DNA of 64,000 nt from a bacterium (GCA_016699105.1 CP064960.1:1223436-1287435); one strand, 5' to 3'. Positions 11,725 through 61,128 are shown, counted from the stretch's first letter. A program made the numbers and translations. The notes: generated by a model not told the origin, from the letters alone.

Positions 11725-14684
11725 TTAGGCTTTAACCACAAAGTTAACGATTTTGTGTGGCACTAATATCGTCTTAACTATCGTTTTACCCTCTAGATGC
11801 GGCACTACCTTAGGATCGACCAGAGCGGCGGCTTTGACTTCTTCGTCGGTCGCGTCGGCGGCTACAACCAGTTCACCGCGCAATTTGCCGTTGACCTGAA
11901 GGATGATGGTTACAATGTCGTCTTTGATGAGTTCGGGATCGTACTTCGGCCAAGGCGCTTGATGGACGCTCCCCTCTTGATGCAAGTTTTGGTGCCAGAC
12001 TTCTTCGGCCAAGTGGGGCACAAAGGGAGCCAACATGAGTACCAAAGTGCGGACAGTTCGCTCGCGCAAATCGTGGGCGTTAGCTTGGCGCAGTTTTTGC
12101 TTAACTTCGGTAGTGGTTAGATAATTGACCAACTCCATCATGGCTGACACACCAGTATTGAAATGCATATCCTCGATGTCGTGGTGCACTTTTTTGAGCG
12201 TCTTATGGACGATGCGGTCGGTGGCCACTGTAAATGCGCCTAAGTCGTTTTCATAGCCGACTGAACCTGACAGTGTTTCGACACCGTCAGTAAGGTCGTC
12301 AAGCCAGGTCCAGACCCGATAGACGAAGCGGGAGACGCCGTTGAGATGATCTTCTGACCAAGCTTTAACTTCGTCGAACGGACCCATAAACATTTCGTAT
12401 AAGCGGATGGTATCAGCACCATACTCGGCGATGACGCTGTCGGGGTTGATAACGTTGCCTTTAGATTTGCTCATTTTTGACCGTCGGGTCCCAGGATCAT
12501 GCCATGGGAGCGACGACGCGCATAGGGTTCACTGGTGGGTACGAGGCCTTCGTCATATAGGAATTTGTGCCAAAAGCGACTGTAGAGCAAATGGAGGGTA
12601 GTGTGCTCCATGCCACCGTTGTAGAGGTCGACAGGGGTCCAGTATTTGAGGTTGGCGGCTGATGCAAATTCGTTGTTATTGTGTGGGTCGGCGTAGCGCA
12701 GGAAGTACCAACTGGATCCGGCCCAATTGGGCATGGTGTCGGTTTCGCGCTGCGCGGGTCCCCCACACTTGGGACATTCGGTATTGACCCAGTCGGTGAT
12801 GGCCGCCAGGGGAGACTTCCCGGTATCAGTGGGCTCATAGTGATCCACTTTGGGTAGTTCGATGGGTAGTTGGTCAACCGGCACGGGCACCACACCATCT
12901 TTGGCGCAATGAACTACCGGAATCGGCTCGCCCCAATAATGTTGGCGACTAAAGATCCAGTCGCGCAGGCGGTACTTGGTGGCACCTTTGCCGGCGCCCT
13001 TATCAAACAGAGCTTTGACGATAGCGCGCTTGGCCTCGACGCCGGACAGACCGTTGAACTGGGTGGAGTTGATGAGCGGCCCATTGGCAGCAAAGCTTGT
13101 GCCTTGTGTAAAAAAGCGAAGCCACAATGCGTGCATTTCGTCTTGTACGTTGGTTAATGCTTCGGTGACAGGCAACCAGACCGGCTCGACGTTGTTGTGC
13201 TTTTCGCTACTCGTCAGCTTTAGTTCATTCCTATTATCGCTCTTCAATCTGAATAGGAAACCGGTAGTGACCGCTAACCGGTTGATCTTTTTTTCGGCAG
13301 AGAAATAATGATGATGAATCCGAAATGGAGCTTGTTCGACCAGTTCAAAGTCGGTATACCCGGTTTCTTCATTGACTTCGCGCCTGGCTGTGTCTAATGG
13401 CTGCTCACCCTGGTCTATGCCTCCACCAACCAGCAGATGTCCGCCCCAATTATCATGGCGGCCGTAGTGATCCATACTCAGAACCTTTTTACCTGATTGA
13501 TCGAGCAGCACAGCCACAATACTAGGGCGCTCCTCGGGTGCTTCAGGGCCATTGCCAGTATAAGGTTCAACCACATATGTGATGGGCAGATTAAAGGCTT
13601 TGGCAAATTCATAGTCGCGCTCGTCGTGGGCAGGTACGGCCATGATGGCGCCGGTGCCATATGAACCGAGTACGTAATCGGCGACCCACACTGGGATTTT
13701 CTCGCCAGTAAGCGGATGGATTGCCTTAATGCCGGTGTCGACGCCAGTTTTGACTTTGGATTCTTCTTGGCGCGATAGTTCGGAGGCCTTGAGGGCGGCG
13801 TCGATATAATCGGCGGCCTCTTGGTTGGCTTTCCAGCCGTTATCTTGCCAGGTTTTGGCGACTTCAGGCGAGACCACCAGGAAGGTGGCGCCAAAGAGTG
13901 TGTCGGGGCGGGTGGTGTAGACGGTGACTGTTGGTGTTGATTGTTCTTTAAGATTGAGACCTGCTAATTCCCAAGTAATTTCGGCACCTTCGGAACGGCC
14001 GATCCAATTGATCTGCTGGGTGGCGATGCGGTCGAGATAATCGACGGTCTTGAGATCTTCGGCCAGACGATCGGCGTAGGCGGTGATTTTGAGCATCCAC
14101 TGGGTGAGCATTTTCTTTTCGACTGGTGTGCCACAGCGCTCATGCTTACCGCCTTCGACTTCTTCGTTGGCAAGGCCGGTTTTACAAAATGGGCACCAGT
14201 TGATGGGCAGTTCTGCCTGATAGGCGAGGCCTTTTTCGAGGAGCTTCAAAAAAATCCATTGGGTCCATCTGTAATAGTTGGGATCTGACGTGCGGACTTC
14301 ACGGTCCCAATCGAAACTCAAACCCAAGGCGCGCATTTGGAGACGGAAGTTGGCGACGTTGCGCTCGGTTGCTACTTGGGGGGCAATCTTGTTTTTGATG
14401 GCGTAGTTTTCGGTTGGTAAGCCAAACTCGTCAAAACCCATGGGGTAGAGCACGTTGTATCCCTGCATACGCTTATGGCGAGCCATGATATCTAAGGCGG
14501 TATAACTCAGTACGTGGCCGACGTGCAGACCGTCGCCGCTGGGATACGGGAATTCAACGAGATAAAAATACTTCGGCCGGGTGTGGTCATCATCGCGAGC
14601 GGCATACAGCTTGGTGTCGGCCCAGACGCCCTGCCATTTGGATTCGATTGCTTTGGGATCGTATTTGTTCATAGTTGGCCTCAA
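11725..14684 (-). CDS. leuS: leucyl-tRNA synthetase (single gene split by 1-nt homopolymer frameshift at 12474-12478; carries an inserted NUDIX domain)
   Basis: HVGH (HIGH) motif, editing-domain TTRPDT, C-terminal fragment begins inside KMSKS (..GQK|MSKSKGN). Adding one A to the A5 run restores GQKMSKS. ~135-aa insert with Nudix box [24 protein letters not shown]. Confidence 0.9.
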
Positions 14685-14778
14685 TTATAGCGCGGGATCA
14701 GATAGACGGCTAGAGTATTTGACTTACATATGCTTAAATGATAGCTCCGATTGCACTGTACCTTGAGAGGACGGCATC

Positions 14779-14937
14779 ATGGATATCGATGACTTTCTGA
14801 TCGGATTATTCGGATTGATGATGATTTTTCTCGGACCTCTTCTGTTTGCCGTGGGATTATTTATTGGCGGAAGGGGTTTGGTAATAACTTTCATCGGCCT
14901 GCTTTGGTGGCTATGGTCATGGGGACAGCTGGACTAG
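14779..14937 (+). CDS. small hydrophobic membrane protein (52 aa)
   Basis: Unlisted ORF MDIDDFLIGLFGLMMIFLGPLLFAVGLFIGG...; two predicted TM helices. Speculative. Confidence 0.2.
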   Translation: MDIDDFLIGLFGLMMIFLGPLLFAVGLFIGGRGLVITFIGLLWWLWSWGQLD

Positions 14938-58916: not shown

Positions 58917-59675
58917 TTACCAGTCACCAAATAATTTCTTGGCATTGGCGGTCGAGCTTAATGCTAAGTCAGCAACCGCTTCGCCGCGCAGACGAGCTAA
59001 TATTTTGGCAGTATCGGCCAGAAACGCCGGTTCATTCCGGTGGCCGCGGTGCGGTGGTGGGGCCAAAAAGGGGCAGTCGGTTTCGAGTAGAATCCGGTCT
59101 GGCGGTACCTGCCTCGCGGCTGATAATTGGTCAGGATCTTTGGTAAACGTCATGATGCCCCCGAGGGCAATATATAGCCCGCGCTGAAGCGACCCTTCCA
59201 TTTCCGCTACGCCCGCGCTGAAGCAATGCACCAGCCCCCGAGTGCCTGGATAATCATCCAATATCCGCCAAAAATCCGGAAACGCCTGGCGCACATGGAA
59301 GATAAGTGGCTTATCGAGCTGGTTGGCTAATTCAATCTGGAAACGCAAGGTCGATTCCTGGTCTTTGGGCGAAGTTTGCGACTTGTACTGATCAAGACCA
59401 CATTCGCCAATTGCTACTACCAATGGATCGGCAGCTAGCTTGGCAATTACCGCGAGAGCAGCCTGTCCAGCATCGGCGTCATGTGGGTGCAGCCCGACCG
59501 CTGCTCGTAGTACTTTTGGATATTGGCGAGCGAGCTCAAGAGCTGCTGCAGAGTCGGCAGCTTCGACACCAACCACTATTTGCTTATTGACTCCAGCGGC
59601 ATTGGCGCGATCAAGTACATCTGCTACATCATCAGCAAAATCGGAGAAATGAATATGTGAATGGGTATCGATCAT
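58917..59675 (-). CDS. tatD: TatD family metal-dependent DNase/hydrolase
   Basis: MIDTHSHI N-terminus, HxH...E...H...H...D metal ligands. Confidence 0.85.
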   Translation of the reverse strand: MIDTHSHIHFSDFADDVADVLDRANAAGVNKQIVVGVEAADSAAALELARQYPKVLRAAVGLHPHDADAGQAALAVIAKLAADPLVVAIGECGLDQYKSQTSPKDQESTLRFQIELANQLDKPLIFHVRQAFPDFWRILDDYPGTRGLVHCFSAGVAEMEGSLQRGLYIALGGIMTFTKDPDQLSAARQVPPDRILLETDCPFLAPPPHRGHRNEPAFLADTAKILARLRGEAVADLALSSTANAKKLFGDW

Positions 59676-59677
59676 TT

Positions 59678-61128
59678 TTAGGCGATTTTGATGGTGCGCT
59701 CTAGCGGCTGATCGGACTTGGGAAACAGTAGACCAACTTCGGGATGCACAGTATCATTTGCAAAGGTAGCCGCTATTTTATGTGCAGTTTCAGGCATGAA
59801 CGGCATGAGCAAGGTGGCTATTTGGTTTAAATCAGTAATGGCGTGATAGAGCACTTCGGATAAATGCTCTTTGTCGTGCTTGGCGAGCTCCCACGGTTTT
59901 TCTTCTTCGAGAAACTGGTTGAGACCCCGAATGAGGAGCCAAACTTCCGCTAAGGCCTTGTCGAGTCGTAGATTTTGCATGGCTTCCTGATACGGTGAGG
60001 TGTCGTGGGAATGAGGCGGCAGGTTACCATAACTGCCATCTAAGTACCGGCCTACCATGACTTGGACGCGCTGGACGAGGTTGCCCAAGTCATTGGCTAG
60101 ATCGGCGTTGTAAACGCTTTCGAAGCGCTGGTGGCTAAACTCACCATCGGAACCAAACCCAAATTCGCTGAGCAAGAAATAACGGAGCGCATCGATACCG
60201 TAATTGCCGGCCAGTTCGACCGGATCAACGGCATTGCCTAATGATTTGGAGATTTTTTGACCATCAATGGTGAAGAAGCCGTGTCCAAAAACGGTTTTGG
60301 GTAATGACAGTCCAGCACTCATGAGCATGGCCGGCCAGTAGATACAGTGGAACTTGGTGATATCCTTGCCCACGATCTGCAGATCGGCTGGCCAGGTGTT
60401 TTCGTAGCCACCTTGAGGGAAACCGGCCACGGTGAGGTAATTGAGTAAGGCGTCAAACCAGACATATATGACTTGGTTTTTGTCACCTGGCCACGGGATG
60501 CCCCATTTTTGGGTGGAGCGTGAGACGGATAGATCATGGAGTCCCCGCTCGATGAAAGCCACTACTTCATTGCGACGGCTTTCGGGCTGGATAAACTCAG
60601 GATGCGCTTGAATATGATCGAGCAATGCTTGCTGGTAGCGCGACAATTTAAAGAAATAATTCTTTTCTTTGATGTGCTCCGGTTTTTTCTGGTGCATGGG
60701 ACACAAACCATCGACCAATTCGTCCTCACGCTTAAACTCTTCACAGCCGACGCAATACCAGCCTTCGTATTCGCCTTCGTAGATGTCACCAGCAGCTTGG
60801 ACGCGTTTGGTGAATTCGATTACCGCTTTGATGTGGTCGGCGTCGGTGGTGCGAATAAACCGATCATAAGAGACACCAGCTTTTTTCCAGGTTGATTCCC
60901 ATTGGTCTGACATCGACTTGGTATAGGTGGCAATGTCTTGGCCGGCGGCTGCTGCGGCTTGGACCGTTTTTGGGAGTTTTCATCGACACCCGTCGAAAAA
61001 ACCACGGTGTCCCCCAGTTGACGGTGGTAGCGGGCAATGGTATCAGCCGCAAAAGTCGCGTAGGCGTGCCCGATGTGGGGCTTGTCGTTAATGTAGTAAA
61101 TAGGGGTGGTGATGAAAAATTTGGACAT
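59678..61128 (-). CDS. metG: methionyl-tRNA synthetase (split by 1-nt homopolymer frameshift at 60967-60971)
   Basis: HIGH-class N-terminus [18 protein letters not shown]; KMSKS as KISKSLGN; zinc knuckle CVGC...C. Adding one A to the A5 run restores ..[29 protein letters not shown]. Confidence 0.9.

Follow-up and report, generated by a model that had tools for sequence, protein, structure and literature searches.

What does it mean that, in a 64,000-nucleotide stretch of a bacterial chromosome, neighbouring same-strand open reading frame (ORF) fragments in differing frames crowd the sequence? The stretch, hereafter the window, is CP064960.1:1223436-1287435 (GCA_016699105.1; locus tags IPG36_*), and all positions are counted from its first letter. 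A preliminary description, made from the sequence alone, had attributed the broken genes to homopolymer-compression errors from uncorrected long reads and not to genome decay. Comparison with contigs from other assemblies, the dependence of the breaks on run length, the selection acting on the broken genes and the assembly recipe all supported that attribution, and we conclude, with a probability of about 97%, that the frameshifts are consensus errors of the deposited assembly and not features of the organism. The artefact is of a type already well known, and the broken genes do not reflect real mutations: in the organism itself, leuS, metG, murA, obg, ftsA and the other genes are intact.

The frameshifts were assessed by direct comparison with related contigs, in favor of which a Pfam scan of joined ORF fragments was dropped. 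Contigs of the same strain (L017 to L050, from Logan and the European Nucleotide Archive) were found via proteins identical to those of the window's intact genes. They originate from more than 10 independent samples, the underlying runs including DRR830128-133, SRR14932648, SRR21875704 and SRR34217540, cover 34.7 kb of the window as a tiling, match it at 99.4 to 99.96%, and are 99.4 to 100% identical to it in substitutions. Against this tiling, the window gave 34 run-level indel calls, corresponding to about 31 distinct events. Several contigs matched it with 0 mismatches and nonetheless differed by indels, namely, L030 (8 indels in 4,680 bp), L031 (5 indels in 2,602 bp), L042 (3 indels in 3,948 bp), and L049 and L050 (1 indel each in 1,989 and 1,745 bp, respectively), while L040 showed 1 mismatch and 1 indel in 4,537 bp and L017 showed 5 mismatches and 4 indel events (5 gap positions) in 8,155 bp. 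Since divergence within a strain that consists of indels only, with zero substitutions, is not a biological pattern, these differences point to errors and not to biology.

A sister population, represented by SPAdes and MEGAHIT contigs (L004 to L016) from at least five further samples, is syntenic with the window at 93 to 98.6% identity. These contigs are 99.5 to 100% identical among themselves, with only two 1-base gaps in total; the gaps that separate the window from them are single-base and lie exactly at the gene breaks. The sister genes are intact and encode MurA (434 amino acids [aa]), LeuS (982 aa), GH5 (390 aa), PMT_2-GH8 (863 aa), MMPL (697 aa), the ABC exporter (596 aa), Obg (423 aa), LysM-CHAP (309 aa), YceG (332 aa), RuvX (138 aa), FtsA (432 aa), MnmA (356 aa), CAP (325 aa), DUF218 (197 aa) and MetG (483 aa), and for each of these genes the colinear tblastn matches of the sister protein jump frame in the window. 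In addition, the 90% cluster of the shortened LeuS includes a 982-aa member on a SPAdes contig. None of the lesions was carried by any same-strain or sister contig.

In total, 50 small indels were catalogued in the 58.2 kb of the window alignable with other assemblies, a density of 0.86 per kb, and 46 of them fall inside 11725-61128, for which more than 20 had been claimed. Three segments (1-1013, 41049-41731 and 50357-54462) lie outside the high-identity comparison and may hold further errors. The events had been described as all single-base, which fits 40 one-base deletions; the others are 4 two-base deletions, 5 one-base insertions and 1 four-base insertion, so that deletions make up 44 of the 50 (88%) against 6 insertions. 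Coding sequence holds 37 events, in 23 protein genes, non-coding DNA holds 10, the gene for tRNA-Ala(cgc) holds 2, and 1 lies at a gene junction; coding, non-coding and RNA-gene DNA are thus all affected. The density is patchy, with 0 to 8 events per 4 kb. Gaps in blastn alignments where identity drops below about 90% (the N-terminal half of the ABC exporter, alaS and 51.1-54.2 kb) were paired alignment noise and were excluded, and the sites 33084-33101, 34410, 56471/56475, 58646, 58912 and 21883, flagged against the sister population, were assigned to divergence or noise because they were without same-strain support or at alignment edges.

The frequency of events rose steeply with the true length of the run, computed against the same-strain tiling. 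Affected were 3 of 18,918 runs of length 1 (0.02%), 5 of 5,276 of length 2 (0.09%), 3 of 1,197 of length 3 (0.25%), 3 of 283 of length 4 (1.1%), 9 of 79 of length 5 (11%), 10 of 26 of length 6 (38%) and the single run of length 7 (1/1). Runs of at least 5 were affected in 20 of 107 cases, compared to 14 of 25,674 shorter ones (Fisher p = 5e-40). The earlier statement that almost all frameshifts lie at homopolymers is somewhat overstated: true runs of at least 5 hold 28 of the 50 events and runs of 4 hold 3 more, together about 62%, and the remaining 19 are in shorter runs or in none. A/T runs that read 5 are frequent sites, as claimed, but A/T runs that read 4 and are truly 5 are equally common.

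These results bear on whether the genome is truly decaying, with real frameshift mutations and gene shedding as in recently host-restricted symbionts. Mycobacterium leprae and young insect symbionts have pseudogene-rich decaying genomes of this kind, and the window resembles them in its many frameshifted ORFs within a small, host-dependent genome: genomes of Saccharimonadia and of the candidate phyla radiation (CPR) at large are reduced and host-dependent, the frameshifts are present in the deposited sequence, and CheckM completeness is only 65%, though this is usual for the phylum. However, the sequence downstream of the lesions shows no relaxed selection, that is, neither a pN/pS approaching 1 nor stop codons. 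Relative to the sister population, the 3,570 codons that follow the first breaks had a pN/pS of 0.050 when read in the repaired frame (377 synonymous and 60 non-synonymous differences), compared to 0.092 for intact genes, and the repaired genes contained no in-frame stop. Several genes with two to four events have neither non-synonymous changes nor stops downstream, and ftsA, hit by four indels, showed 90 synonymous and 0 non-synonymous differences there. Larger deletions are absent, and leuS, metG, murA, obg, ftsA and a tRNA are among the broken genes, some of them hit repeatedly. Finally, the lesions are absent elsewhere in the strain, including contigs with zero substitutions that lack every indel, and the events are run-length dependent and 88% deletions. 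We consider decay, which several of these results contradict, very improbable.

A different biological explanation is that the genes are expressed in spite of their breaks, the runs inducing either programmed ribosomal frameshifting or transcriptional slippage. Frameshifting of the programmed +1/-1 type is known from prfB and dnaX, and slippage of transcription at long poly(A) tracts rescues genes in some endosymbionts; here too, the frame changes at a run of identical bases inside a needed gene, and many of the sites are A/T runs. In contrast to those systems, the affected genes are dozens of unrelated ones and the runs concerned are mostly just 4 to 6 nucleotides (nt), 38% of the sites having no meaningful run at all. 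At each site, the ORF runs on without a break in homologues both close and distant, with no slippery site or other recoding signal conserved among them, and no A/T tract of about 9 nt or more was found, the window's runs being 1 to 6 nt long. The same changes also occur in non-coding DNA and in a tRNA. Recoding is thus extremely improbable, the least credible account that we considered.

It could also be asked whether the comparison contigs are in error, or whether some sites are polymorphic (phase-variable), with the window carrying the minor allele. Low coverage can lead short-read assemblers to mis-call runs, the polymorphic rate reported for this genome is 0.9% (PMC8012365), two same-strain contigs (L023 and L041) disagree at 36480, and the sites seen only against the sister population are not assignable with certainty. 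Against this, the longer alleles, which give intact conserved proteins, were obtained consistently from more than 10 independent samples with at least three assemblers, up to eight contigs back one site, and phase variability would not be expected of essential genes. Contradicted by several results, this account has a slight chance at best.

Fourteen events are supported by the sister population only, at 93 to 98% identity, among them both nusB events, those in GH5 and PMT_2-GH8, 15563, the two in murA, those in LysM-CHAP and mltG, the two in ruvX, 49302 and 49665. Judging from the conserved genes that they break, all of these but 15563 and 49302/49665 are almost certainly errors.

The history of the assembly is in line with consensus errors. 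CP064960 is a circular single-contig metagenome-assembled genome (MAG), Aved_18-Q3-R54-62_BAT3C.16_uni, of 1,322,297 bp obtained at a wastewater plant in Denmark (Singleton et al. 2021, PMC8012365) and classified as Patescibacteria; Saccharimonadia; o__UBA4664; g__UBA5169 (PMC8012365, Supplementary Data 3). Its coverage was 14.72x for Nanopore and 7.44x for Illumina, and the "_uni" MAGs were reassembled by Unicycler with --no_correct --no_pilon --mode bold, while the additional Racon, medaka and Illumina-Racon polishing is described for Flye contigs only (PMC8012365). Given this recipe and these coverages, the assembly went without effective short-read polishing. Frameshifts from homopolymer indels are the documented way in which Nanopore consensus fails when coverage is below about 40x and no short reads are used for polishing (Sereika et al. 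2022, PMC9262707), and the run-length dependence, the deletion bias and the events in non-coding DNA and tRNA together form the known signature of low-coverage, unpolished Nanopore consensus (PMC9262707). The window is like R9.4-generation Nanopore homopolymer errors (PMC9262707; IDEEL test) in being deletion-biased and run-length dependent, with split and truncated genes, and like other unpolished Nanopore assemblies in being a low-coverage long-read MAG whose changes are gone when the strain is assembled from accurate reads. We infer that Nanopore consensus, and not the Illumina graph, is the source of the affected stretches and that an R9.4.1-generation flow cell was used.

In stretches taken from long-read consensus, the basecaller and the consensus step would under-call runs of identical bases, with a chance of error that climbs steeply with true run length, and both would also lose a base in certain short contexts, TGGA/TCCA above all, giving about 0.86 small indels per kb, nearly all deletions. 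Each such error inside a gene would shift the frame, so that gene callers would put out truncated, split or fused ORFs, while errors in non-coding DNA and in tRNA would escape a reader seeking broken genes.

Some observations weigh against this reading or fit it imperfectly. The 19 of 50 events (38%) in runs of 3 or less or in no run mean that homopolymer compression alone misses part of the spectrum, and the 4-base insertion at 47932 is atypical of Nanopore error. A few of the sister-only events (15563, the 49302/49665 fusion and the +1/-1 pair in nusB) could, as far as the alignments go, be real strain differences. The homopolymer-length histogram of the window itself is not obviously truncated, which is not diagnostic. 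Compared to typical Nanopore homopolymer errors, the window further differs in its four 2-base deletions and five insertions, in its origin from a Unicycler hybrid with patchy error density, and in the recurrent loss of one G from GG in TGGA/TCCA outside runs of 4 or more. This last context accounts for 5 of the 6 losses of GG/CC to G/C (7092, 29067, 44318, 48657 and 57057; Fisher p = 2e-5). It is a tentative and rather unlikely idea that TGGA/TCCA is a methylation motif of this member of the Saccharimonadia that systematically disturbs Nanopore basecalling; the losses could instead reflect a generic k-mer bias of the basecaller. If the former were true, the errors would carry information on an uncharacterised restriction-modification specificity in a CPR bacterium.

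The value of attributing the frameshifts to consensus error is practical, not biological, and lies in correcting the annotation of CP064960, whose truncated, split and fused products spread into protein databases and clusters. The deposited LeuS (QQR52418.1), 100% identical to the window's large LeuS fragment, has 733 aa instead of 982 aa, full-length relatives measuring about 980 aa, and a deposited membrane protein (QQR52431.1) has 305 aa instead of 343 aa. QQR52455.1 (IPG36_08000, 342 aa; 49232-50260) joins a 200-aa gene and a 130-aa gene through a +1 at 49665; the two are separate in other assemblies (cluster members), and the product is, on this comparison, a probable artificial fusion. 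A simple extrapolation of 0.86 indels per kb gives about 1,100 errors across the 1.32-Mb genome, a load sufficient to distort metabolic reconstruction, pseudogene counts and completeness estimates of the species representative.

All of the genes that the preliminary description had named proved to be affected, colinear homology changing frame in each (tblastn). The number of events was one in leuS, obg, metG, mnmA, mltG, the ABC exporter, LysM-CHAP, GH5 and CAP, two in murA, ruvX and MMPL-2, and three in the E2-like gene. ftsA carries four events, not one, and two each were found in the AAA+ ATPase (+1 and -2) and in DUF218 (-1 and -2). A codon-usage frame plot reproduced the switches in native genes and in the E2-like gene and was weak in the low-GC island at 24-29 kb. 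In ftsA, the codon-usage frames run 0/1/2/0/1 along the gene.

Four events precede 11725, all on the minus strand. In nusB, a 1-base deletion (GG to G) near the C-terminus at 1984, outside same-strain contig cover, was seen against sister L004/L033 at 98% identity together with a tblastn frame switch, and a 1-base insertion (T to TT) at 2082-2083 was seen against L004/L033, a distant NusB (L001) running on in the other frame from 2082. The GH5 cellulase has a 1-base deletion outside any run at 3538; L004 carries the intact 390-aa gene, and tblastn gave 100% identity in two frames that meet at 3537. The motif obtained by repair is LDLHNY in the sister strain and not the proposed LDCHNY. The fourth event is the loss of a C (CC to C in TCCA) at 7092 in the PMT_2-GH8 gene (L004, L033, L034 and L035), where the frame switches. 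This single 863-aa gene (5962-8738; L004 16125-18716) unites a glycosyltransferase domain (PMT_2) and a glycoside hydrolase domain (GH8) in one fusion and is surrounded by a cluster of GT2, GtrA and GH5 genes.

In leuS (minus strand), 12474-12478 reads T5 on the plus strand and T6 in eight contigs, including same-strain short-read L040. The deletion cuts the KMSKS motif: the gene strand reads GGTCAAAAATGAGCAAATCTAAAGGC in the window, and one extra A gives GQKMSKSKG, the repair that had been proposed. LeuS (11728-14684; L004 10001-12949) contains an inserted NUDIX domain (PF00293) within the synthetase, as in many Saccharimonadia relatives, some of which have additional hydrolase domains and are as long as about 1,150 aa. 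An intergenic T5 is reduced to T4 at 15563-15566 (L004, L005, L028 and L033). On the plus strand, murA lost a base twice, C6 to C5 at 18328-18332 and T5 to T4 at 18612-18615; both are backed by L004, L005, L028, L029 and L033, in which the 434-aa gene is intact, whereas it occupies three frames in the window.

The neighbouring E1/E2-like/JAB island (19400-23798) was, as the earlier description had advised, read on repaired frames, with corrected genes obtained from same-strain contigs (L030 1-4679 and L028 7479-11895). The E2-like protein is encoded by a single 458-aa ORF (L030 485-1861), which the window breaks on the plus strand by -1 at 19818-19822 (A6 to A5), +1 at 20172-20175 (A3 to A4) and -1 at 20660-20662 (G4 to G3). 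All three events were seen against L030 (0 mismatches), L028 and L029, and the codon-usage frame plot changes frame at each of them; the first site had been listed at 19817-19821. Distant E2-like homologues (28 to 45% identity, 460 to 480 aa) found by exhaustive HMMER search align across window frames 1, 3, 1 and 3, while a word-indexed homologue search with the middle fragment returned the window's own protein only.

The corrected gene order is E2-like (458 aa), a small protein (77 aa), a JAB-like protein (202 aa; weak Prok-JAB match) and a ThiF/E1-like protein (257 aa; PF00899, 8e-25). Among the corrected island proteins, PADLOC scored ThiF/E1 alone, weakly, against the E1-E2 and BilD models. 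About 500 bp of non-coding DNA separate the 77-aa gene from the JAB gene, and this spacer at 21.4-21.9 kb holds 5 of the 10 non-coding events: AA to A at 21458, C5 to C4 at 21535-21538, A7 to A6 at 21615-21620 and G5 to G4 at 21640-21643 (all L028 to L031), and A6 to A5 at 21900-21904 (L028 to L032), a run that ends 13 nt before the JAB gene, which starts at 21918. No convincing ORF was found in the corrected spacer. The sister population is without the island, murA directly abutting MMPL-1; instead, another cluster that contains ThiF is located there between the genes for the photolyase and a 449-aa protein (L005 11486-13655); an E1-like module thus occupies alternative sites in closely related strains.

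Downstream of the island, a hypothetical membrane protein gene (plus strand) has A6 to A5 at 26082-26086 (L047 to L050, of which L049 and L050 have 0 mismatches). The AAA_14/DUF4143 ATPase, on the minus strand and truly 481 aa long, shows a 2-base deletion at 28590 just before the P-loop, where the true sequence is VIIPGLRGTGKTT, and a net 1-base insertion plus a substitution at 28679-28682 (+1 at 28682). Both are supported by L047 and L048; tblastn matches fall in three frames, and the Pfam AAA_14 match begins at a frame boundary in the window. Intergenic events follow at 28958-28963 (1-base insertion T5 to T6; L047 only) and, near tRNA-Ala(ggc), at 29067 (CC to C in TCCA; L004 to L007 and same-strain L047). 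On the minus strand, an 85-aa hypothetical gene has A4 to A3 at 29332-29334 (same-strain L042 with 0 mismatches; the gap is seen against sister contigs too), and MMPL-2 (697 aa) has G5 to G4 at 30450-30453 (L042 and L004 to L007) and A5 to A4 at 30639-30642 (L042 and L004 to L008).

The tRNA-Ala(cgc) gene (minus strand) was altered twice in its T-stem, by a 2-base deletion (G6 to G4) at 36702-36705 and by C6 to C5 at 36713-36717, both relative to L023; the tRNA measures 73 nt with the anticodon at position 35 in the window and 76 nt with the anticodon at position 34 in L023. Its 3' end, TGGTGGAGCTGGGG(G)GATT on the plus strand, lies at 36693-36709 and recurs at 36541-36557, about 150 bp downstream of the tRNA, and this repeat may be a remnant attachment-site duplication of an integrated element. 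The non-coding copy is itself reduced from G6 to G5 at 36550-36554 (L023 and L041), and a further non-coding 1-base deletion lies at 36480-36484, where L023 has C6 and L041 has CCTCCC.

The remaining genes up to ftsA are on the minus strand unless stated otherwise. The ABC exporter (576 aa in the same strain) has C5 to C4 at 38282-38285 with a frame switch (L023, L024 and L025). In obg (423 aa), T6 in the contigs (L025, L006, L009 and L010) reads T5 at 40615-40619, and its repair restores DAKKLKLELK...GLPNAGKS, as foreseen. LysM-CHAP hydrolase (309 aa) has G3 to G2 at 42201-42202 (sister L009 to L011 only). Sister contigs L009 to L012 show a 1-base deletion outside any run in mltG/YceG (332 aa) at 44059-44060 and two events in ruvX (138 aa), GG to G in TGGA at 44318 and G6 to G5 at 44428-44432. 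An Lsr2-like nucleoid-associated protein (PF11774 / PF23359) is encoded at 46510-46884 on the plus strand; the Lsr2 family is known above all from Actinobacteria, which usually serve as hosts for Saccharibacteria. An 87-aa hypothetical gene, also on the plus strand, has T6 to T5 at 46940-46944 (same-strain L043 to L046).

A 237-aa hypothetical gene has G4 to G3 at 47449-47451 and a 2-base deletion (CA) at 47457-47458 (both L043 and L044), as well as A5 to A4 at 47768-47771 (L043); this last event was foretold from the sister protein (GHPESF|YKFKDLPLP) and then borne out by L043. At the junction of this gene and ftsA, the window has 4 extra bases at 47932-47935 relative to L043 only, which could be an assembly error or a real variant. 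The four ftsA (432 aa) events are T5 to T4 at 48347-48350 (L043, L009 and L010), GG to G in TGGA at 48657, C3 to C2 at 48773-48774 and T6 to T5 at 48943-48947 (the last three L043 and L009).

Also on the minus strand, probable events relative to sister L009 only are G5 to G4 at 49302-49305 in the 130-aa hypothetical gene and a 1-base insertion (TT to TTT) at 49665-49667, which joins this gene to the 200-aa gene. T5 to T4 occurs in mnmA (about 352-356 aa) at 54871-54874 (same-strain L017; L013) and in the Colicin_V-CAP protein gene (325 aa) at 56655-56658 (L017 to L019, L013 and L014). The DUF218 gene (197 aa) has GG to G in TGGA at 57057 (L017 to L019, L013 and L014) and a 2-base deletion at 57394 (the same contigs and L016). 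In metG (483 aa), eight contigs including same-strain L017 to L020 have T6 where the window has T5 at 60967-60971, again as predicted.

Two further differences between the window and other contigs were observed. Between the CAP gene and mnmA, at 55851/55858 of the window, same-strain L017 (DRR830131) carries a 5.5-kb insertion (13829-19362) with genes for an IS1595-type transposase, a Replic_Relax protein and an 874-aa protein; being absent from the window, it is a mobile element that varies between strains. Compared to the sister population, the window shows mosaic identity (37418-39189, 51133-54655 and others), ranging from 98.6% at 58.9-64 kb down to about 76-85%, with low-identity stretches in the N-terminal half of the ABC exporter, obg and alaS, a pattern suggestive of recombination between the two populations or of segments that evolve fast locally.

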